From Candidatus Bathyarchaeota archaeon (GTDB lineage: Archaea; Thermoproteota; Bathyarchaeia; Bathyarchaeales; Bathycorpusculaceae), in the NCBI GenBank assembly GCA_963833575.1, contig CAWHXY010000006.1:96001-160000 (forward strand): a DNA stretch of 64,000 bases, read 5' to 3'. The notes under the pieces were generated by a model. That model had not been told where the DNA came from. It searched no databases and saw nothing but the letters and a program-made list of their open reading frames with translations. The translations under genes and the position numbers were made by a program. This document shows positions 49,777 through 59,725 of the stretch, one piece after another; position 1 is the stretch's first letter; each line of letters starts with the position of its first letter.

Positions 49777-50003
49777 CTTGCTTGGCTTCTCTATTTGCGA
49801 ATCCCCTTTAAAAAGCTACGGTGTTCACACTCTTGAATAAAACACTCAGCGAAACCCTTTCTGATTTTCAACACTTCTTTTTGCAACTTCATAAGAAACG
49901 CTTATTATCCAAATTTGGGTGACATCTCCCGCGCCAAACCCTCCCTTTCTTTTTCATTAATGTTCTGCTGTAGTCTTTTTGCTTACCTAAATTTTTCGGA
50001 GGT

Positions 50004-50282
50004 TTGTCCTTGAGCGGTAGCTGTGAACCTCTTTTTTCTGATTTTTACAACAAGGATTGGGCCAATCGAAAACTCCGTTTTGCGATCGCAACTCTTCAGG
50101 GAAAAATTGAGATCTCTATCTGGAAAAGACGCCTTCAAACGGCTCTAATTGCCAAGGATGAGCTCCTGGATCATGGTTACAAGTGGCAAGCCCAGAGGAT
50201 CGATAACTGGATCCATAGGCTCCAGGGCCAGGAAATTGCTAAGGATGAGGCCAGGATTCAGGGCCAGGAGGCCAGGAAATAA
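50004..50282 (+). CDS. E2 ORF1 hypothetical (92 aa)
   Basis: GGAGG before TTG; homologous to E1 33640-33882. Confidence 0.72.
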   Translation: MSLSGSCEPLFSDFYNKDWANRKLRFAIATLQGKIEISIWKRRLQTALIAKDELLDHGYKWQAQRIDNWIHRLQGQEIAKDEARIQGQEARK

Positions 50283-50473
50283 TGAAGGATCCAATCTTTG
50301 GATCTGGCCAGTTAGATATCTGGCCCTGCAGGAGAGGATCTTGGCACCAGGAAAACAATTATTGGTTGATTGAGGCCTGGCCAGCAGCTGCTCAGGATCC
50401 AATAGTTTCCAGGCCCGGGAATTTACAGGCCGAAGGCCTGACCTCTGAGAGAAGAGAGGAGGGCTCTTTCTAA
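50282..50473 (+). CDS. E2 ORF2 hypothetical (63 aa)
   Basis: TAATG overlap; C-terminus shared with E1 ORF2. Confidence 0.55.
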   Translation: MKDPIFGSGQLDIWPCRRGSWHQENNYWLIEAWPAAAQDPIVSRPGNLQAEGLTSERREEGSF

Positions 50474-51424
50474 TTGGCAGCAAAATTTAGGCTGGAGCAA
50501 GAAGGCAGCTTCACTTTCATGAGGCCTGACTCGATCGAGTGTAGGATCGTTACCTGCAAGCATTATGAGGCCTGTAAAAGCGTTGGCGAAAAGTCGGGTA
50601 TCCTGCCTAAAGCGAAGTACGGTTTTGAGGAAATTGATTGGCAGTTACCAGGCCACGGCGAGAAGTATGATGATTGTGGGGATTGGCGGTATCGTGGCTG
50701 TCTTAACGTAGAAGCTCACGGCCAGAATGAGCTCGGTCAGGATGTTGAGGGAAAGATCTGGGTTGAGTGGTATCATCGGAATTGTGGCCGTGCAGAATGT
50801 CCTACTGATTATGAAAGATGGGCTGGGCTTGAAGCATCAAAAATCACGCATCGGTTGAAGTATTTTTGGAAGAGGGGAAAGGTGCTTCATATAACCATTT
50901 CTCCGAGTGAAAAGGACGCTTTAACATTGAGCTTTACCAAATTGAAGGCTAAAATGTACCGTGTTGCAAGGCTGAGGGGGATCAAGGGAGGCTGTGTAAT
51001 TTGGCATCCCTTCAGGGAAAATGATGATGGAACCTGGAGAGTATCTGGCCACTTCCATATCTTAGGGTTTGGGTGGGTTCGAAATGTCAGCCAGGGGTAC
51101 AAAAGTGATGGTTGGTTAGTGAAAAACATCCAGGACGGTCAGAAGGAAAGATCTGTTTTCAGGACGGCCATGTATCAGCTTAGCCACTGTGGTATAAGTA
51201 AAGGAACTCGTCCTGTGGCTTGGTTTGGAGTTTGCAGCTCAAAAATCAAAGTTCCAGAGATTGAGGAAGTTAAGCATCTATGTCCATGTTGCGGAGCTGA
51301 GCTAGTACAGCTTCGTTATTATGGAGATCCTGACGGTCTCCCAGATAAGACTGAAGAGAACGGTTCCTGGTTGGATTCTGGAGATTGGATCGAGAAAGAA
51401 ACAGTGAAATGGAGGAGAGATTAG
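50474..51424 (+). CDS. HUH rolling-circle replication initiator, IS91/SNJ1 RepA-like
   Basis: NCGRAECP, HITISP, GHFHILG, YQLSH, CPCCG. Confidence 0.85.
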   Translation: MAAKFRLEQEGSFTFMRPDSIECRIVTCKHYEACKSVGEKSGILPKAKYGFEEIDWQLPGHGEKYDDCGDWRYRGCLNVEAHGQNELGQDVEGKIWVEWYHRNCGRAECPTDYERWAGLEASKITHRLKYFWKRGKVLHITISPSEKDALTLSFTKLKAKMYRVARLRGIKGGCVIWHPFRENDDGTWRVSGHFHILGFGWVRNVSQGYKSDGWLVKNIQDGQKERSVFRTAMYQLSHCGISKGTRPVAWFGVCSSKIKVPEIEEVKHLCPCCGAELVQLRYYGDPDGLPDKTEENGSWLDSGDWIEKETVKWRRD

Positions 51425-51425
51425 G

Positions 51426-51638
51426 ATGTCTAAACTAGGGAGAAAGATTTGTTGCATCTATAGAAAGGATGCTCGCTGTGTTAGACCATTCCAGGATTTT
51501 CAACGGTGTTTCTTCATTGGAAATCATGTTAGAGCTGGAGAACAATGTGATTTTGACGTTGGAGTATGTTTGTTGGTACCTGAAGCAATTAAAGCTCAAT
51601 ATCTCGCTATTTTAGAAAAAAATGGTTTTCATAGGTGA
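51426..51638 (+). CDS. E2-specific Cys-rich protein (70 aa)
   Basis: Tightly packed after Rep; six Cys; absent from E1. Confidence 0.6.
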   Translation: MSKLGRKICCIYRKDARCVRPFQDFQRCFFIGNHVRAGEQCDFDVGVCLLVPEAIKAQYLAILEKNGFHR

Positions 51639-51645
51639 TGATTAG

Positions 51646-51804
51646 ATGTTCGTTAGCATTGAGATTTTAGAGAGTTTCAGGGCCAGGATCCAGGTTAAGA
51701 TCTGTGGTGAATGTCGGTTCTGGGTTGGCCGTTGCCTTTTAGGTGAGGGGAACCGTTTTGCCGGATCTGAGGCTTGTAATAGATCTAGGAGTCGAGATGT
51801 GTAA
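51646..51804 (+). CDS. E2 52-aa Cys-rich protein (not in the ORF track)
   Basis: GGTGA SD; RARIQVKICGECRFWVGRCLLGEGNRFAGSEAC; TAATG overlap with the next gene. Confidence 0.7.
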   Translation: MFVSIEILESFRARIQVKICGECRFWVGRCLLGEGNRFAGSEACNRSRSRDV

Positions 51805-52097
51805 TGGCTAGGGCTACAGATTGTATCTTAACAGGTACTAATCAAAAGAGGCTGTTGCGAGAGATTAGACAAAAGCGGTTGCTACCTCTGAATTTTGTTG
51901 AGAGGGTCAGGGATAAGGTTGTGGATCTAGATATCAGCTGTGAGATGTGTGGCCGAAGGATTAGAAAGGGCTCCAGGATCCATGTGATAAGGAGCTCAAT
52001 TAAAGTCAGGATTTATCATCTGTGTTGTTTTGAGGGCTCTTTTATTCATGCTCACAGAAGTAACTGTGATCAAGCTTCTGGGAGGGTTGAAAACTAA
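51804..52097 (+). CDS. E2 zinc-finger-like protein (97 aa)
   Basis: CEMC...YHLCC; homolog of 35356-35652. Confidence 0.72.
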   Translation: MARATDCILTGTNQKRLLREIRQKRLLPLNFVERVRDKVVDLDISCEMCGRRIRKGSRIHVIRSSIKVRIYHLCCFEGSFIHAHRSNCDQASGRVEN

Positions 52098-52098
52098 A

Positions 52099-52311
52099 AT
52101 GCCAAAAGGTGAAGGTACTGCTGGAGGCATCATGGAGATAATTAAGACTCCGCTGGGCATCATCATTTTGTTTATCATTATGTTGGTGCTAGCTGGACTC
52201 TCGATTGCCTCAGCTATCTCAGGAGCCTTAACCGCTGCAGCTGTCAGTTCAGCTGGGCTGTTGGTTGTAGTTGTGCTCCTGGTAGTTGTCAAAGTATTAG
52301 GGAAATCTTAA
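52099..52311 (+). CDS. E2 70-aa two-helix hydrophobic protein, candidate virion/capsid protein
   Basis: Amino-acid identical to 35654-35866. Confidence 0.8.
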   Translation: MPKGEGTAGGIMEIIKTPLGIIILFIIMLVLAGLSIASAISGALTAAAVSSAGLLVVVVLLVVVKVLGKS

Positions 52312-52599
52312 GCAGAAAGGCTCAGAATTGAGCTTTATTTCCTCATTCTCCCTCATTTTTCCGTTAATTAACATCTTTTGAGCTCCAGGAGAGGGGTTTT
52401 TGACTCTCTTAGGGTGGTCAGTTTTGATCGGAAAATGGCCAAGTTTCTTCAATCTTTTGCGTACGTGAGAAATTTGGGCCCCTTTATTATTATATTATGT
52501 ATATTAGGTAATCACAAAAAAAATAAATATTAAAAAATGCTTAGTAGAATTCAATTTGGGGTTGAATGTTGAAATGGAGCTCAGTTTGGTGGTATCTAA

Positions 52600-52881
52600 G
52601 TGAGAGAGTACAGTAATGGCTTCTCTGTTAAGCTAACAGATGAGGAGCAAGCAAGCTATGAGAGAGTTCTCAGTTATTATAAGGCCGTTGATCCTTCTCG
52701 ATCAAAAGCTTTCAGGTTGTTGCTGAGGGCGCTGGAGTTGGAGATCTCCAGGCAATCTCAGAAGGCCTATTGGAGTAACACCGAGTTTGATCCTCCCAGG
52801 GCTGAACCAAGCCATGACGTAACAATCAGTTCTGAGGAGGAGTTCCTGGAGAGAGAAGCAAAGGACACCTGGACTGAGTAG
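52600..52881 (+). CDS. E2 RHH-like regulator
   Basis: Identical to 36155-36436. Confidence 0.65.
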   Translation: MREYSNGFSVKLTDEEQASYERVLSYYKAVDPSRSKAFRLLLRALELEISRQSQKAYWSNTEFDPPRAEPSHDVTISSEEEFLEREAKDTWTE

Positions 52882-53050
52882 GGCAAAAGTAATATCCATA
52901 AAGGCGTTATTATTGATCAAGCAGCTGAGGCTAGCTGCATGGCTCCAGGAGGATTTAAGATCTTGAAACCGTCTTTTTCTTCCTTTTGGAGCCATCCAAT
53001 TTTAACTATTTTTGTCAATTGTGAAATAGGTCTAAAATCGGACATAGTGG

Positions 53051-53131
53051 GTAAAAAGTAATATCCGTTTGATGGGCTTTTGTGTCCATTTTGTTTATAA
53101 GTAAAAAGTAATATCCGTTTCATGGACTTTT
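53051..53131. repeat. E2 31-bp direct repeat x2 upstream of the integrase
   Basis: Same units as E1, at 53051 and 53101; partial copy at 52885-52897. Confidence 0.85.
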
Positions 53132-53195
53132 CTAAAAACTGTAGATGTTAAGAGCCTTGACGTTGAATAAGTCCTTCAAGGTTTCAAGATTTAAA

Positions 53196-54482
53196 ATGAG
53201 TGCTGATTTAGCTCAAATTTCAAGTTCAAGTAACAAAACCAGCTCAGCTCCTCAGTGTCCTGAGTGTAGTTCTCATGAAGTAGTTCTTGATGGCCATCGT
53301 TACTCCTGGGGCCAGGATATTCAGCTTTTCAGATGTAAATCATGTAAGCATAGGTTCTCAAACGGACATAACAGTTCAAAAACTAATCAAAATACTATTA
53401 GATCTAACCAATTAGGCGCTAAATTAGAGGCGAAAAAATTGGTCGTGCTGCCACATAGAAAACATGTCGGCACGGGAGAAGTCACTGCAGAACATGAAGC
53501 ATTGCTTAGAGTTTTTGAAGGTTGGCTACGGAAAGAAGGCTACAACAAAAACTGTTATCCAAACAACGTAAAGACATTGCTATACCTTGGGGCCAATCTT
53601 TTAGATCCAGAGGATGTCAAAGCAAAAATCGCTGATCACAACGTCAAAAACGGAATGAAAATGCAACTTTGCTACAGTTATGAAGCGTTTCTACGGATGA
53701 ACAAAATGACTTGGACGCGACCAAAAAATGGAAAAGGCTACAAACAAGACGAGATTGATCCGTGGATTCCACTTGAGGTAGAGCTGGATCAACTGATTGC
53801 AGCTGCACATAGCAAGCGGATGGCAGTTTTTCTACGGACTCTTAAGGAAACTTTCACTGATCCAAGTGAGGCACTACAGATTGAGAGCCATGACATTGCA
53901 GACAATTCAGTAACGATCAGACATCCTGTTAAGAAACATCGTCCACGAACGCTAGAAGTTTCACCTCAGCTGATTGCAGATCTAAATAGCCTCTCACATG
54001 ATTCAGATCGGATTTTTGATTGCAGATACAGCACTATGATCAGCGGTTTTATTGCGTTGCGTAGGCGTGTCGCTCAAAGAACCCAAAACGACAGAATAAA
54101 CTACATCGAGTTACGGAGCTACAGACATTGGGCTGGAACAATGATTGCAGAAATGTCAAACGGTAATCCAATGTCAGTAATGAAGCTGCTAGGCTTAAGA
54201 CGCATTGAAAATGCTATGAAATACGTTAACATCTGGAAATTGAGCTTCAAAACTGAGACTGAATGGCAATACATGGAAGTTACAACACCTGAAGAACTAA
54301 AGATTGCCTTGCTTGGCGGCTACCAACATGTCATCGACAAGTTTGGAGCTTCATGGTTTAGAAGACCTAAAAGAATTGCCATTGCTATTACACCGATTAG
54401 CCAGCGACCAGATGAACCACAATGTCCCCAGATAGAAACCCCGATTAATAAACGCGAACCTGCATTAAGAAACGCTTATTAA
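53196..54482 (+). CDS. E2 tyrosine recombinase-like integrase with N-terminal zinc ribbon and non-canonical catalytic residues
   Basis: N-terminus shared with the E1 integrase; ETFTDPSE, HPVK, LRSYRHW, LGLRRIENAMKY; stop codon overlaps attR. Confidence 0.85.
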   Translation: MSADLAQISSSSNKTSSAPQCPECSSHEVVLDGHRYSWGQDIQLFRCKSCKHRFSNGHNSSKTNQNTIRSNQLGAKLEAKKLVVLPHRKHVGTGEVTAEHEALLRVFEGWLRKEGYNKNCYPNNVKTLLYLGANLLDPEDVKAKIADHNVKNGMKMQLCYSYEAFLRMNKMTWTRPKNGKGYKQDEIDPWIPLEVELDQLIAAAHSKRMAVFLRTLKETFTDPSEALQIESHDIADNSVTIRHPVKKHRPRTLEVSPQLIADLNSLSHDSDRIFDCRYSTMISGFIALRRRVAQRTQNDRINYIELRSYRHWAGTMIAEMSNGNPMSVMKLLGLRRIENAMKYVNIWKLSFKTETEWQYMEVTTPEELKIALLGGYQHVIDKFGASWFRRPKRIAIAITPISQRPDEPQCPQIETPINKREPALRNAY

Positions 54483-54517
54483 ATGACGCGGATTAAACCT
54501 TAGAAGCCAGAGGTTTT

Positions 54518-54595
54518 GGGCGAGTAGATCAGTCTGGCATGATCGCCACGTTGGCATCGTGGAGGTCCCGGGTTCAAATCCCGGCTCGTCCACCA
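54518..54595 (+). tRNA. tRNA-Ala(GGC)
   Basis: GGGCGAG/CTCGTCC acceptor with G3:U70, CCACG-TTGGCAT-CGTGG anticodon arm, GGTTCAAATCC, encoded CCA. Confidence 0.96.
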
Positions 54596-54743
54596 AACAA
54601 TTATTCGTGTTTACGCCTCGAAGGCGACTTATTGCCAATTTAAGGGCATTTTCACAGATTTTTGGCGCATTTAACCCAATTTCATAAGCTAAATTCGCTA
54701 ATTCTGGATTTAATTCAATCGTTGCACTGACTTGTGTTGTCAT
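54596..54743 (-). CDS. CcdA/RHH-like small protein whose frame runs into the antisense of the tRNA
   Basis: TIELNPEL..A.EIGLN..KICENALK.AI pattern typical of CcdA-like antitoxins. Confidence 0.5.
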
Positions 54744-54939
54744 TTTGTTGATCTCCACGAAATGCACGTGTCTGTTGTCCGGTTAGGACTTTATAGGAAT
54801 TTTGTCCAAGCCTATTTTTTAAGAGGTGACTTTGCAAAGTTTGAAAAGTTGATGACTATGAAATAAGTCGAGAGGACTTTGCAGTTTTATGAAAGACTTA
54901 AGAACCAAGTACGATAATCCAGATAACTGGTGACTTGGC

Positions 54940-56877
54940 TTGCCAGCTCCAAAATACTTGATTCCGCAATTTCTTCATCTCAAGATTAGTAACATGACAA
55001 CTTTTCCACAAGAAAAGAGAATTTCCTTTGATAAGGGAATACACGTAATATTTGGCGGAAACCATTCAGGAAAAACCACAATAGTAAACTCCATAAGATA
55101 TGGCGTTTTCGGCTTATCATCGAGTAGCCTCCCTGAAGGAGTTGAAAAGAGGTATTTTTCATCAAGAATTCAAGAAAATATACGCAATTCTTTAGATATT
55201 AATACTGAGTGTCGTTTGGACAACGTCAAAATAACAACTCATAGAAAGGTTTTCTCCTCAATAAATGCAGAAATTGAAGCAACAATTTCAAAGGAGACAA
55301 AAAACACCTTTTCAATGTCACAAGAAACTGTCGTCCGTGAAAAGGAGTATTATGATAGACTAAGGGGCATTATGGGAAACATCGACGAACAACAACTGGA
55401 TTTTGTTTCAAATCTTATGTTTGCCGATGAAAGCAGACATTATATTCTCTGGAGTAAGAACTTAGAAAACTTTGTAACGTACTTTCTTACATCTCCAGAG
55501 ATTTTTAAAGAATACATGACCCTTGAAACTGAAATAATCAAAACTGACATAGAATTGACAAAGCTTAAACAAGAAAGGACTCAAGGAGTAAACAAACTTC
55601 AAGATAATGAGCGGTTGGAAAAGTCTTTCGAGAGAACATTGAAAGAATTCGAAAAATTGGATATTGATCAAGTAACTGAAGAAATCGAATCTTTGGGCAA
55701 TCAATTAGAAGAGTGCAGAACCAAAGTCGCTGAAGCAAGCAACATTTTGTCAATCAAAATTAAAGACAGATCGGATATTGTTACAAAAATTGCGGAGAAT
55801 AAACATGAAATCGATGAGATAGAAGAAAAATCTGATGATGCGAAAAAAGAACTTCTTAAAGCGTATCTCAATCCGCAAGATAGTGATCAATACCATCTTG
55901 GTAGATATCTTTACCATAAAAAGCAATGCCCTGTATGTTCTGCTGATATGTCTGATGAGATAAACAGTCGTCTGGAAAAGAGAAAATGTCCACTTTGTGG
56001 TCATAGAGACATAGTTGATTACCGAAGTGATGCAAAAACAAGTGATAACCAATTTTCGATTCTCACTGAAAGCAAAGAAAAAATTGTTTCCCTTATGCAT
56101 TCAACCGAAACTAATTTAACTAAAATAGAAGGTCAAATCGAAGAAACAAACATGATTTTAGGTCAAGAACACGCAAGAGAGGTTGCATTGCTCCAAAGGA
56201 GAGCTGAATTTAAATCAATCGAAGAAAGCCTGCTCAGAAGGGAAATAATCCTTGATCAACTAAAGAAAATATCCATGCAAAAAGGAGTTTTCGAAGAAGC
56301 TATTACCGAGATTGATGAAAAAATAGAAAATACAAACGAGAAAATAGAAAAAACAAAACAGAAACAAGACCGTGTAAGAAACGATATGGAATTGGACGCC
56401 AAAACCGCTTTGACAAATGTTCGACAAAGATTTTCCAATTTCTTTGACATAGCCACGAATGGAGAAGAATCGGCAAAACTTACAGAACATTTAATTCCTG
56501 AACTTAACGGTCGTCCAGTGTTTCATTATGACACAGTATCGCAATTTGAACGTACCGTTTTCGATTATGCTTTTAGGATTGCATTGTTGTCTGAATTCGC
56601 AGTAAGAACAAACACTTTCCCTTCACTAATTATTGAAACTCCTGACGAGGTAACTGATGAGTCTTATATACCCCATTTGGCTAAAGCGATTTTCAAGTAT
56701 TGTTCAAATCTTTCTATCGTTGTTACAACGGTTAACACTGATCTAATGAAACATCTACTCAACAATTACAAAGGCGAGGAAAAAAATAGACATTTCACTG
56801 ATTTAGTTTCTAAAGGCACACTTACGCAGAAAAAGTTCTACGAAGTTTCTATCAAGAAATATTTAAGTGAAATTTAA
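54940..56877 (+). CDS. Rad50/SMC-like ABC ATPase with coiled coil and zinc-hook-like CxxC pair
   Basis: GGNHSGKTT Walker A; long heptad coils around CPVC and CPLC; VSQFE signature; LIIETPDE Walker B. Confidence 0.85.
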   Translation: MPAPKYLIPQFLHLKISNMTTFPQEKRISFDKGIHVIFGGNHSGKTTIVNSIRYGVFGLSSSSLPEGVEKRYFSSRIQENIRNSLDINTECRLDNVKITTHRKVFSSINAEIEATISKETKNTFSMSQETVVREKEYYDRLRGIMGNIDEQQLDFVSNLMFADESRHYILWSKNLENFVTYFLTSPEIFKEYMTLETEIIKTDIELTKLKQERTQGVNKLQDNERLEKSFERTLKEFEKLDIDQVTEEIESLGNQLEECRTKVAEASNILSIKIKDRSDIVTKIAENKHEIDEIEEKSDDAKKELLKAYLNPQDSDQYHLGRYLYHKKQCPVCSADMSDEINSRLEKRKCPLCGHRDIVDYRSDAKTSDNQFSILTESKEKIVSLMHSTETNLTKIEGQIEETNMILGQEHAREVALLQRRAEFKSIEESLLRREIILDQLKKISMQKGVFEEAITEIDEKIENTNEKIEKTKQKQDRVRNDMELDAKTALTNVRQRFSNFFDIATNGEESAKLTEHLIPELNGRPVFHYDTVSQFERTVFDYAFRIALLSEFAVRTNTFPSLIIETPDEVTDESYIPHLAKAIFKYCSNLSIVVTTVNTDLMKHLLNNYKGEEKNRHFTDLVSKGTLTQKKFYEVSIKKYLSEI

Positions 56878-57514
56878 TGAAAGATCGAATGAACTCGAGG
56901 AACTTAAAGATCAATTTGCTCTTTGGCTTCTTTTGAGTAAGCTGAAAAGATGCGAATATACAACTCAGCGACTGAAACTCCAAAAGCTTGTTTATTTAAT
57001 TGATATTTTTGGAACAATATTCGAAAAGAAACCAACCAACTACACATTCAATGTATACAAACTTGGACCTTTTTCAAAAGACATTTTGCAGGATATGGAT
57101 CGTCTTGTTTCTGTTGGCATAATAGATGCTAAAGAAATAAAACTTTGGGATCCTAATCACGAACGTTCATTTGAGTACAAGATAAAGAGAGAACCTGAGT
57201 TAAGCAAAATTGCCCCAGCCATTAAACGCGATTTTAGTTTGTTGGAAAGAACTATTGTTTTTACGGTTCAAGCAGTTGGCAATTTTAATAGCGAAGAAAT
57301 AAGAAAACTGGTATATAATGAGCCAAATTATGTTCAAGCTAAAAAACAGGGTTTCATGACAACAATTAATCCTCACTACGAACTCGCTAAACAATTCAGG
57401 GAGTCATCAAGAAAAATTGCTTTTGACCAATTCAAAATGGTCTTGGATGAAGAACAAATTTCTCTGCTTTACTTGGGTTATATGAAGAGTGGAAAATTTC
57501 CACATTTGCAATGA
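56867..57514 (+). CDS. Panacea/SocA (DUF4065)-like protein
   Basis: LKLQKLVYLID ... Y.F..Y.LGPFS.DI motif. Confidence 0.7.
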   Translation: MKFNERSNELEELKDQFALWLLLSKLKRCEYTTQRLKLQKLVYLIDIFGTIFEKKPTNYTFNVYKLGPFSKDILQDMDRLVSVGIIDAKEIKLWDPNHERSFEYKIKREPELSKIAPAIKRDFSLLERTIVFTVQAVGNFNSEEIRKLVYNEPNYVQAKKQGFMTTINPHYELAKQFRESSRKIAFDQFKMVLDEEQISLLYLGYMKSGKFPHLQ

Positions 57515-57520
57515 TAATAA

Positions 57521-58503
57521 ATGAAGAAAGACGCTGTAGACGCTGATTTCAAATGCGCAATGGAAGATTTCATACAGGATTATCTCAATAAATATGGTTG
57601 GCTAATTGATTTATCGAAAAAGTATTTCATTTCTCCCTCCTTGTTTGAAAATATTTTGAAGTTTGTTGAAAGAGTTCCTAAGATGAGAAAAGAGAAGTCG
57701 CCACTTAGTCTAGGCTTGGCGTTCAAAAACAAAGTATTGAATCTTGAAGAACCATTAATGTCTTACAACCCATTTCATATTTCAGAAATGCGCAACTTTT
57801 CCAATCTGAAAAACGCGGTAGCTGGCAATCCACTATGTTACATCTTAGATCCGATCGGCTTGGTAAGTATTGGTCAGGTTCCCAAATCAATGATTTTGAC
57901 ATCTCCTGATCAGACATTAAGGAATTATCTAAAATCTTTAATACACTGACATTTTTTGTTGAAAACTCAATACTTGAGGTATATGACACCGGAAGTTTTG
58001 TTCAAATCAATAGAAACGGACTTTGGATGAAACCATGCATAATGGTGCTAAATGAATTTCAGAGGCAGGGATTCAAACTTGATCTTCTTCAACATGTATT
58101 GCAAATTTGCCTACAAATGTCCTACCTTAACAAGGGCGGCACTTTCGTTTTGACGAAAGATGACCCCCCAAAATTCTGCGTATCAATGATAAAAGGAAGC
58201 GTTTTCAAAAAAACAGAACTTGATCTTTTGCCCCCCACGGAGATAATTGCTTTTGCAGATATTGATGGCGCTGTCATCATAAACCAAAAAGGTGAATTGC
58301 TTAATGTCGGGCAACGACTTTGTCCACCAGACACAACCACAGGGTATTTCGTGGAATCAGGGCGAGGAGCCAGACATAATTTCGCCTCAATGTATTCAAA
58401 AGCAGTAGAGGCTCTTGTTTTTGTAGTTTCCGAAGAAGGCTCAATTTCACTATATTATTCTGGAGATTTACGTGCAAGATGTTTTTCTGAACTTTTTGAA
58501 TAA
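57521..58503 (+). pseudogene. Diadenylate cyclase (DisA_N/DAC)-domain protein, split by a 1-bp frameshift near 57925
   Basis: GGTF, IDGAVII, GARHN (RHR-like), VSEEGSIS; the downstream frame is open from 57910 and overlaps the upstream ORF. Confidence 0.78.
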
Positions 58504-58516
58504 GGAATTGTTATAC

Positions 58517-58753
58517 TCAGTTTGACTTCTCGTTTTTCAAATCCCTAAAATTGTGGCTTCCTTGAGAATCTCTTGACAATTCATGATATCCATCTTTATC
58601 TCTGAGTACTGTTGCGTCGCCTTTTTTTATATTTATAAATGTCAAGTCATCATCAAAAACTTGTGTTTTTGAAGCTGTCAAGCCAAACAATCCTTTTGCC
58701 CATCCGCTCGCTTTAATCTTCGTATATTTTTCACGCGATTTTGTTTTTACCAC
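58517..58753 (-). CDS. Small hypothetical protein
   Basis: GAGGTGG SD before GTG; 78 aa. Confidence 0.55.
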   Translation of the reverse strand: MVKTKSREKYTKIKASGWAKGLFGLTASKTQVFDDDLTFINIKKGDATVLRDKDGYHELSRDSQGSHNFRDLKNEKSN

Positions 58754-58792: not shown

Positions 58793-59260
58793 CTATTTTG
58801 GTAACGCCTTCTCAATTTCGACTAGTCGGTCTCTCATCCCTTTCGCGAACTCTGTTGAAACATCTGTTTCAATAACTTTTAGTTCTATCAATAATCTTTG
58901 AAACTCAGCCTCGGGAGTGGGAATAGATTCCCAAGGATCAGGGGTATAGCCTGTCATCTCCATCGCGTCAATTGACGAACAAGCCTTCCAATATTTTTTC
59001 ATGAGTATGTCAAGCATGCGATACCCAGATTTTTCGGCAATTTCTTCTGCTTTTTTTCTCCCTTCAACATATTCTTCACCTTTCTGTTTCTGAAGTTTAT
59101 CTAATAGTGGTGACATGTCAGGGTTTTTTCTTAATTCTAAATATTGAATTATGCCGGTTTTTGCAACGTTCGACCAACTTACTTCAGGATAAGCGTCCAT
59201 TTGATTTCCTACATCATCAGGTAACCCGAGCGTTATGTTCCTAGTCATTTCGCTTAACAA
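58793..59260 (-). CDS. Protein with N-terminal RHH-like DNA-binding domain
   Basis: RNITLGLPDDV..M..YPEVSWS.VA..GI..YL pattern. Confidence 0.65.
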   Translation of the reverse strand: MLSEMTRNITLGLPDDVGNQMDAYPEVSWSNVAKTGIIQYLELRKNPDMSPLLDKLQKQKGEEYVEGRKKAEEIAEKSGYRMLDILMKKYWKACSSIDAMEMTGYTPDPWESIPTPEAEFQRLLIELKVIETDVSTEFAKGMRDRLVEIEKALPK

Positions 59261-59331: not shown

Positions 59332-59725
59332 CAATTTGTTTATCGAGTCGAATGAATCTTTACTTTCTTTGCGTTCCGCAAAGTATGTTATCAAATTGTA
59401 TGGGCATTTATCCATGAAAAAGGATGATTATTCATAATTTCAGACTTTTTAACACGTTTTTTCATTGAAAATCGAGTAAAATTATTCTGCAAAATCGACA
59501 ATCAAGGGCAATTTTACCCTATTTCAATGTTTACCCGACACTATGTGTTCGATGAACTCTCAGTCTTTTCAATGATGTCAAATCGCTGCCACGATACCTA
59601 CGTGGAGGTCTCGGGTTCAAATTGAGGCTTGGCCACCATTTTTCTCCACCCAACGCGCATGCTTAAGTCATAAAAAAACTTATCAATTAGCGCAAACAAA
59701 AGGCATCTAAAGAAGGACTCGATAC

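Follow-up and report, generated by a model that had tools for sequence, protein, structure and literature searches.

Positions 54940-58503 of a 64,000-nucleotide stretch of archaeal DNA (the window; contig CAWHXY010000006.1, positions 96,001 to 160,000, from the 2.75-Mb, eight-contig assembly GCA_963833575.1 of a Candidatus Bathyarchaeota archaeon) hold three co-oriented genes on the plus strand, the first two overlapping by 11 bp and the second and third separated by a gap of 6 bp. That the genome is archaeal is confirmed by a full-length match of the archaeal SSU model (1486 bits) to one of the assembly's contigs. Unless a locus name precedes them, all positions given here are those of the window. 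Gene 1 (54940..56877, plus strand, 645 amino acids, TTG start) encodes a short SMC/Rad50-like ABC ATPase of the LmuB type; gene 2 (56867..57514, plus strand, 215 amino acids, GTG start) a middle protein with a predicted fold like that of LmuC, Panacea (DUF4065) and the DarG C-terminal domain; and gene 3 a protein of the diadenylate cyclase (DAC) family, whose reading frame is broken in this genome. An initial annotation, made from the letters of the window, had described three tightly packed, co-oriented genes, and its coordinates, overlap and gap were all confirmed. It had also likened the arrangement to that of systems in which an SMC-like sensor is joined by a small partner and an effector, a layout that is borne out by a PADLOC match of gene 1 to LmuB, by the Panacea-like character of gene 2 and by a Pfam DAC match of gene 3. 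The trio belongs beside the Lamassu defence systems, from which it differs in its third component.

Judged by its sequence, gene 1 is a bona fide relative of LmuB. It has a Walker A motif (GGNHSGKTT, residues 39-47) and a coiled coil with a double CxxC zinc hook at its middle (CPVC, residues 330-333; CPLC, residues 350-353), and the PADLOC LmuB model PDLC03859 matches residues 13-614 with an E-value of 1.8e-23, other LmuB models being next in rank; Pfam AAA_23 is matched as well. A search for relatives returned 28 further clusters at 33-48% identity, and the window copy was aligned with the 26 longest of these (n = 27). All 27 members match each of the LmuB models PDLC03859, 03863 and 03862 (E ≤ 1e-5, best 2e-27), and matches of the family to GajA, PtuA, PbeC and mad3 are weaker or limited to the P-loop. 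Walker A and the four cysteines of the two CxxC motifs are likewise invariant in 27/27; the initial annotation had described gene 1 as a coiled-coil ABC ATPase with two CxxC motifs. The hallmarks described for the 'short' LmuB are a length of about 600 amino acids and zero to two copies of CxxC (PMC12663957), and the 645 residues, two CxxC motifs, Walker A and coiled coil of gene 1 agree with that description. Its Walker B region reads h-h-h-h-E-T-P-D-E, which would place a threonine at the position of the catalytic glutamate, as in the hhhhD[Q/S/T/E] of short LmuB. Searched against the PDB, the single gene 1 sequence found no match, and the matches of a three-row profile were confined to P-loop stretches of Rad50/SMC proteins (best E 0.0048). 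The gene caller's version of gene 1 has 627 amino acids, consistent with an ATG start at M19 (54994). Because P9, Q10, L14, I16 and N18, which lie ahead of M19, are invariant in three aligned copies, the TTG start at 54940 is favoured.

Gene 2 has affinities to several families at once. It carries the motif KLQKLVY...YKLGP, and its own match to Pfam SocA_Panacea (PF13274) is weak (E 9.6e-4; 20.5 bits, below the cut-off of 25.7); in PADLOC it matches PDC-M19A (2.5e-8) and DarG (6e-5). The DUF4065/Panacea-like identity given to it in the initial annotation is nevertheless upheld by the family, of which 16/20 members match SocA_Panacea (E ≤ 0.01, best 8e-6), and several relatives bear a precomputed PF13274 label. 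When the same 20 members were compared with PADLOC models at E ≤ 0.1, PDC-M19A was matched by all 20, DarG by 16 and LmuC by 11 (best 1e-5), and the type I specificity-subunit model was matched in part by 15 (also at E ≤ 0.1). A single small protein family draws together LmuC, Panacea (DUF4065), the DarG C-terminal domain, PDC-M19A and a portion of the type I specificity-subunit model.

The predicted structure of gene 2 points in the same directions. In a wide fold search against 48,161 chains, its AlphaFold model (pLDDT 87.6) came closest to the C-terminal domain of DarG, the domain that binds DarT (7yk3_D; VIA Z 11.2, root-mean-square deviation (rmsd) 3.9, 144 residues aligned), and ranks 3 and 4 went to LmuC, in chains from two Lamassu structures solved independently: 9ny5_C (Z 7.8, rmsd 3.7, 131/171 residues) and 9hqx_d (Z 7.6, rmsd 3.5, 127/164 residues), Z values under 8 being middling scores that can reflect a common arrangement. 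Foldseek gave no match to the model at E ≤ 0.001 (its best was DarTG, at 2.9e-3), and a PDB search with the gene 2 profile gave nothing meaningful. The sequence matches of 11/20 members, combined with the fold scores, render a relationship of gene 2 to LmuC likely, if not proven. There are also hints that the LmuC, Panacea and DarG-type 'holder' domains share ancestry; the text of the structural paper on Lamassu, as far as it deals with the subject, reports no relatives of LmuC outside Lamassu (PMC12663957).

Gene 3 is read in two frames in the window. The first (57521..57925, plus strand) encodes a helical hairpin and most of a degenerate DAC-like domain, its open reading frame (ORF) running on to a stop at 57949 (142 amino acids); the second (57925..58503, plus strand, open from 57910) encodes the end of the degenerate domain and the DAC domain proper. 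The second frame matches Pfam DAC (PF02457) with 44.7 bits against a cut-off of 27, and the intact 319-residue homologue P0002 does so with 51.8 bits and has no other match in Pfam. The first frame is 39% identical to residues 9-126 of this homologue and the second frame is 50% identical to it. The motifs of gene 3 (named after 10.64898/2026.08.10.743927, as far as that text defines them) are DIDGAVI, GRGARHN and VSEEG, and its DGA aligns with the DGA of CdaA. A model of the intact homologue (pLDDT 90.4) found DACs for all six of its best matches in the wide fold search (Z 11.8-15.4, residues 163-316), and Foldseek also matches it to DACs at an E-value of about 1e-7. LmuA was not among the best 50 matches of that fold search, a listing that is not evidence of absence.

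The initial annotation had called gene 3 a DAC-domain protein with an N-terminal extension. The DAC domain stands, and the extension is actually of two parts. As modelled for the intact homologue, the first part (residues 1-43) is a pair of long helices arranged as a hairpin. Residues 44-168 matched the family's own DAC part in an hhalign comparison (92.6% probability, E 4.6e-7, 95 columns) and are without the DGA and RH positions; because of this match, they are, at the level of sequence profiles, a degenerate duplicate of the DAC fold. This agrees with accounts of DACN-type sensor domains, which have been described as distantly DAC-like (PMC13640721), and the ESM Atlas clusters nearest to gene 3 are labelled DACNK or DACNH plus DAC, these being automatic labels that serve as a lead only. 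The Pfam DACN models matched neither P0002 (E ≤ 0.01) nor the first-frame part in the window (E ≤ 0.1).

In the alignment of gene 3 relatives, 19 rows span the active site, and all 19 have DGA, [RK]H (R in 17, K in 2) and S-x-[DE]-G. None of the 19 has an arginine at the third position of RHR, where N, D, E, K, H, S or F stands instead, and because the last arginine is replaced throughout, cyclase activity is not assured. A possible explanation is that the degenerate DAC and the DAC together form a nucleotide-binding or oligomerisation module and not a synthase, the trio then being a sensor without an effector, like Lamassu clade O, or acting through an unlinked partner. Lamassu does include a clade described as having no effector domain (PMC12663957), no receptor gene accompanies the trio, and the placement of the module in bacterial proteins would suit a regulatory role: In distant bacterial relatives (P0019-P0059) the whole module of about 300 amino acids lies at the C-terminus of proteins of about 470-1030 amino acids, behind effector-like or sensor domains. 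Among 20 such relatives that were scanned, these are PRTase-CE (7), AMP-binding (4), Lon_C with zf-HC2 (3) and PAS/GAF (1), the other five having the DAC only. However, the C-terminal domain strictly retains DGA, [RK]H and S-x-[DE]-G whereas the N-terminal copy has lost them, as would be expected were catalysis under selection. Moreover, defence DACs that retain only 'select residues' of the motifs are described as active cyclases (10.64898/2026.08.10.743927). We therefore regard a non-enzymatic module as improbable.

The split in gene 3 can be located to a single base. Intact homologues align without a gap across it, following one frame to N135 (57923-57925) and the other from the next residue, a leucine (57925-57927). 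Because base 57925 serves both frames and the homologues align without a gap, the window lacks one base relative to the intact gene, and the break is placed at 57925..57925 on the plus strand. Programmed -1 frameshifting at this base was considered and judged unlikely, since the site (AGG AAT TAT) has no canonical slippery heptamer X XXY YYZ. The break may be a mutation or an assembly error. Because a one-base frame break interrupts the cyclase gene, the copy of the trio in this genome is, to go by its reading frames, probably inactive.

The same three genes recur in other genomes. An exhaustive profile search for relatives of gene 3 returned 372 at E ≤ 1e-3, of which 14 reached E ≤ 1e-30; these close relatives are about 313-329 amino acids long where whole. 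Scans of the sequence collection yielded 39 loci: 8 with a close full-length gene 3, 2 with fragments at contig ends and 29 with distant DACs. Gene 2 lies directly upstream of gene 3 in all 8 of the loci with a close full-length gene 3. Gene 1 is full-length in 7 of these, and in the eighth its last 34 residues are present at the contig edge. No LmuB-like or gene-2-like neighbour was detected at the 29 loci with distant DACs (tblastn, E ≤ 1e-3), and the LmuB-like and middle genes are the only co-conserved neighbours of gene 3. The 8 loci represent four sequence types besides that of the window (L008 with L028, L029 and L030; L026 with L027; L024; and L025), which are about 64-68% identical in nucleotide sequence to one another and to the window, and one locus belongs to a metagenome-assembled genome of the Bathyarchaeia. 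In the window and in every other locus the order is LmuB-like gene, middle gene, cyclase gene. Because the same three genes stand in the same order at 40-66% protein identity in other loci, the trio is more than a chance assembly. The initial annotation had asked for a search of other neighbourhoods, and that search recovers the trio in four further sequence types, one of them partly on its contig. Gene 3 is intact in all four. Gene 1 of L024 (L024:213-2153) has a single in-frame TGA, at codon 384, in a locus where genes 2 and 3 are intact.

What lies to either side of the trio varies from locus to locus. The flanks are ribosomal S12/S7 genes in L008, and in L027 they are an integrase fragment and an AAA_22/AbiEi-like gene. 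The former (L027:8964-9275) follows gene 3 after 7 bp and encodes 103 residues from the C-terminus of an integrase of the phage type, and the latter (L027:3312-4496) encodes a 394-residue AAA_22/AbiEi_4-like protein upstream, on the opposite strand.

A physical connection between the second and third proteins is suggested by structure prediction. Genes 2 and 3 of L008 were modelled as a pair, each with its own alignment, in three runs and with three controls. The runs scored ipSAE values of 0.79, 0.79 and 0.71, the best control 0.08; in calibration, the mark applied to these values was reached by 58/80 solved complexes and by 2/110 mismatched pairs. Agreement between the runs is high, with 82% or more of the contacts in common, and partner pLDDT is at least 83. 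In the modelled interface the C-terminal helices of gene 2 (residues ~172-208) meet the N-terminal hairpin of gene 3 (~9-42, together with 85-88 and 111-113), and the hairpin of gene 3 is thus predicted to dock on gene 2. No solved structure of a comparable complex is known to us, but the model may have profited from the likeness of gene 2 to DarG and to LmuC.

If the trio were a toxin-antitoxin module of the PanA type, gene 2 would directly neutralise gene 3 as a toxic cyclase, the ATPase would be a regulatory or stabilising third part, and addiction or stabilisation of the island would be the primary function, not the sensing of DNA. The predicted binding of gene 2 to gene 3 suits such a system, as do the SocA_Panacea matches among 16/20 of the gene 2 relatives, the toxin-binding domain of DarG from DarTG as the best fold match of gene 2 (Z 11.2 over 144 residues) and the position of the genes on an integrative island. 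Panacea antitoxins are, in addition, described as binding many toxin folds directly, a putative nucleotide cyclase among them (PMC8832971). In contrast, the ATPase is present at every locus with room for it, and its coiled coil, zinc hook and sequence mark it out as LmuB-like in particular; accessory third genes occur in a small fraction of genomes only, according to the part of the Panacea survey that treats them (PMC8832971); and gene 2 resembles LmuC as well. On balance we think a toxin-antitoxin pair with an added ATPase unlikely to be the right description, although it keeps a real share of the probability. It also overlaps largely with a derivation from Lamassu, for Lamassu itself sequesters its effector.

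The trio resides on a small integrative island, which bears out the tRNA island of the initial annotation. The left boundary is a tRNA-Ala gene (anticodon GGC; 54518..54595, plus strand, called by ARAGORN), and a repeat search showed that the last 51 nucleotides of this gene, its 3' part (54545..54595, plus strand), recur as a direct repeat at 59588..59638 (plus strand; 78% identical to the tRNA 3' part), which forms the right boundary and was not itself called as a tRNA by ARAGORN. The trio is thus bracketed by the repeats, whose spacing is 5043, for an island of about 5.0 kb, and its GC content is 35.3% against about 40-45% in the flanks. The remaining cargo consists of two small ORFs on the minus strand, one of 78 amino acids (58517..58753) without a family match and one of 155 amino acids (58793..59260) without a significant family match, neither of which is kept beside the trio elsewhere. 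A further minus-strand ORF of 100 amino acids (54465-54767) starts in the spacer to the right of the tRNA and runs antisense across the whole of tRNA-Ala. Its first 52 residues had no family match, and the ORF could be either spurious or a gene changed by integration.

Next to the island there is a second stretch, of 4.6 kb (49892-54482), that is flanked by perfect 16-nucleotide direct repeats (49892-49907 and 54466-54481). It contains a tyrosine-recombinase gene (53145-54482) for a protein of 445 amino acids with a Zn-ribbon, which matches a PHROG integrase family at an E-value of 2e-7 and has a weak XerA-like match, as well as an ORF of 316 amino acids without a family match (50474-51424) and several small ORFs; GC skew is strong, at 0.2-0.33, over 50000-52500. 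This stretch looks like a second small integrated element that abuts the 5' side of tRNA-Ala. The recombinase gene was considered as a part of the trio island and rejected: Because it lies across the tRNA and within 16-nucleotide direct repeats of its own, its stretch is treated as a separate neighbour element.

The trio was detected in none of 400 other genomes sampled from the phylum. Gene 1 was not found in the 24 genomes of the same genus that were searched, and five genomes of the same order gave only weak P-loop matches to it. The gene 2 profile scores an E-value of 4e-98 in the window's own genome, and its best match in 400 other genomes of the phylum is a partial one, at 6e-12. No DAC was found elsewhere in the window's genome, and no other DAC among 40 relatives of it. 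By its distribution, its tRNA island and its low GC content, the trio is sporadic, accessory and mobile. These observations bear on a further possibility, that the trio is a housekeeping checkpoint for DNA integrity, a modular counterpart to DisA whose Rad50-like scanner would control cyclic di-AMP (c-di-AMP) for the cell's own damage response. DisA couples a DAC to the scanning of DNA, gene 3 has structural matches to DisA, and the N-terminal similarity of gene 1 is of the Rad50 type. A checkpoint of this sort is hard to reconcile, however, with the missing gene 1 in the 24 genomes of the genus, with a gene 2 profile that is strong in 1 of 401 genomes of the phylum, with a low-GC tRNA island as its seat and neighbours that differ by locus, with 40 relatives in which no other DAC was found and with broken copies in two of four types. 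We consider it very improbable.

Taken together, the evidence inclines us to regard the trio as a mobile archaeal defence module derived from Lamassu, in which a protein made of a degenerate DAC and a DAC has replaced LmuA; we put the probability of this somewhat above even, at roughly 0.55. In the Lamassu of Vibrio cholerae, as described in the structural paper, a single LmuA is bound through its C-terminal domain, as a monomer, by LmuC and a dimer of LmuB, and DNA ends trigger the formation of LmuA tetramers, in which the nuclease is on; the solved complex is LmuA1B2C1 (PMC12663957). By analogy, the LmuB-type ATPase with its double zinc hook would be the sensor and the LmuC-like middle protein would sit beside it, and the N-terminal hairpin of the cyclase would fasten it to that protein's C-terminal helices, as in the predicted complex. 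Upon sensing the DNA ends or replication intermediates of an invader, an LmuB-like dimer would release the third protein, and the freed cyclase would self-associate and thereby be switched on. Such self-association would activate the enzyme, since it takes two DAC domains, face to face, to make up a DAC active site.

The product of an activated gene 3 would presumably be c-di-AMP or a related dinucleotide, made in a host that is otherwise without a DAC. Because there is no other DAC in this host, a pulse of the dinucleotide would be an unambiguous alarm or poison. The domain class TrkA_C is known to bind c-di-AMP in other organisms, and the host genome encodes one protein with two TrkA_C domains. 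A scan of this genome for a SAVED domain gave no match, and neither did its control. What would follow is speculative: Ion homeostasis might be poisoned through receptors of the RCK_C type, an unlinked effector might be signalled, or ATP might be drained, and in each case the infected cell would be arrested. There is precedent for DAC enzymes in immunity in PanS and DS-2C (PMC13640721; 10.64898/2026.08.10.743927), and defence DACs are described as making cUA as well (10.64898/2026.08.10.743927).

Several observations weigh against deriving the trio from Lamassu as a defence module whose cyclase took over from LmuA. The first group concerns the components. In the window, gene 2 has no match to the PADLOC LmuC model at E ≤ 0.1, and the fold scores that tie it to LmuC are the middling ones given above. 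None of 17 relatives of gene 3 matches the PADLOC LmuA models at E ≤ 0.1. Its domains are laid out differently from those of LmuA: LmuA has an N-terminal effector and a C-terminal docking part, whereas gene 3 has docking helices at its N-terminus, then the degenerate DAC, and the DAC at its C-terminus. The genes, too, run in the reverse order, the ATPase, middle protein and enzyme of the trio standing against the usual LmuA-LmuC-LmuB. The second group concerns function. The RHR motif is incomplete in all 19 rows, the trio has no co-encoded c-di-AMP receptor or killing effector, and DAC enzymes are perhaps too slow for the depletion of ATP. The third concerns setting. Among IMG/VR viral contigs, the patterns used brought up relatives of neither gene 2 nor gene 3, no known defence genes were seen beside the trio in the loci that were annotated, and two of four complete trio types are disrupted, the window by its frame break and L024 in gene 1.

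A Lamassu-derived module would carry further consequences, which we put forward with more reserve. It is possible, though we would not count on it, that an SMC-type sensor of the Lamassu core here drives the synthesis of a cyclic dinucleotide and not a nuclease, which would be the first case to connect the sensing of foreign DNA by SMC proteins with immunity through nucleotide second messengers and would occur in archaea that are otherwise without c-di-AMP, and that LmuC, Panacea and the DarG domain form one superfamily of adaptors that hold effectors. If this were true, the same sensor chassis could feed a signalling pathway or a metabolic poison, and the trio would add a third, archaeal class of defence DAC to PanS and DS-2C. 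The mechanistic parallel is close, in that LmuA is activated by oligomerisation after its release and a DAC needs two facing domains. A kinship of LmuC to Panacea and to toxin-binding domains of the DarG type is hinted at and can be tested. With a family that is rare and mostly metagenomic, and a window copy that is broken, there is at present little practical use in the trio.

Among known systems, DisA offers a conceptual likeness, the tie between the state of DNA and c-di-AMP, in addition to the DAC fold that it has in common with gene 3 (Z 13.3-13.9). It is a single protein that is linked to DNA integrity and has a DNA-binding C-terminus of its own, and it differs in sequence as well: The NCBIfam DisA model scores only 20.8 bits on gene 3, against a cut-off of 201. 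PanA (Panacea/DUF4065) and the C-terminal domain of DarG are like gene 2 in sequence and fold and, if the predicted complex is correct, in binding the neighbouring enzyme. They differ in belonging to two-gene toxin-antitoxin pairs, whereas the trio has an LmuB-like ATPase throughout. A Burkholderia prophage has been described as carrying a Panacea antitoxin paired with a putative nucleotide cyclase (PMC8832971).

Two defence DACs were described in 2026, the minimal PanS and DS-2C/CdaG (PMC13640721; 10.64898/2026.08.10.743927). PanDA/Panoptoo, which consists of PanS and the 2TM-beta effector PanE, resembles the trio as a DAC enzyme in immunity that is found on mobile, low-GC DNA and in hosts without a housekeeping DAC (PMC13640721). 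PanS is characterised there as a minimal DAC of about 150 amino acids, a constitutively active maker of a decoy signal that is paired with a membrane effector; in contrast, gene 3, with homologues of 313-329 amino acids, adds a degenerate DAC and a hairpin and has an SMC-type partner and no 2TM-beta protein. DS-2C/CdaG (DACNG-DACNH-DAC, from the DS-2 variant of CBASS) has a DACN-type domain ahead of its DAC, to which the degenerate DAC of gene 3 may correspond, and DS-2C is described as defence-associated (PMC13640721). It differs from gene 3 in its length of about 550-575 amino acids and in adjoining CD-NTases, and the NCBIfam model DS2_3 (NF053872) scores 21.4 bits on gene 3, against a cut-off of 630 and over the DAC core only. 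The main text of PMC13640721 mentions neither SMC nor Lamassu. A full-text literature search for 'Lamassu' together with 'diadenylate cyclase' returned no paper, supplements, where such a combination could be listed, being outside its reach.

The closest relative of the trio is Lamassu (LmuA-LmuC-LmuB; DdmABC of V. cholerae), in particular its short type. Common to both are a short LmuB-type ATPase with CxxC zinc hooks, a small middle protein (gene 2 being LmuC-like in fold and, in 11/20 relatives, by sequence), three tightly packed genes and a sporadic, mobile distribution; docking of the third protein on the middle one is predicted for the trio. The domains reported for LmuA are nuclease, protease, Sir2, lipase, hydrolase, FMO, TIR and similar, and the lists of Lamassu and ABC-3C effectors, in the portions of these papers that give them, are without a cyclase (PMC12663957; PMC10586767). 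The targets of Lamassu effectors, as reported in the sources cited here, are cell components that the effector attacks itself, such as DNA, protein, NAD+ or lipid. The trio differs from Lamassu in that its enzyme is of the DAC family and its middle protein bears a Panacea signature. The initial annotation had proposed a candidate new defence system. The core of the trio is a known one, gene 1 being a relative of LmuB in 27/27 members and gene 2 being LmuC-like, so that novelty is limited to the third component. Because the ATPase agrees with the description of LmuB and the middle protein probably with that of LmuC, while the third protein is not an LmuA and the gene order is not that of Lamassu, the trio is best called a Lamassu-derived variant and not a member of Lamassu, and its third component is new.

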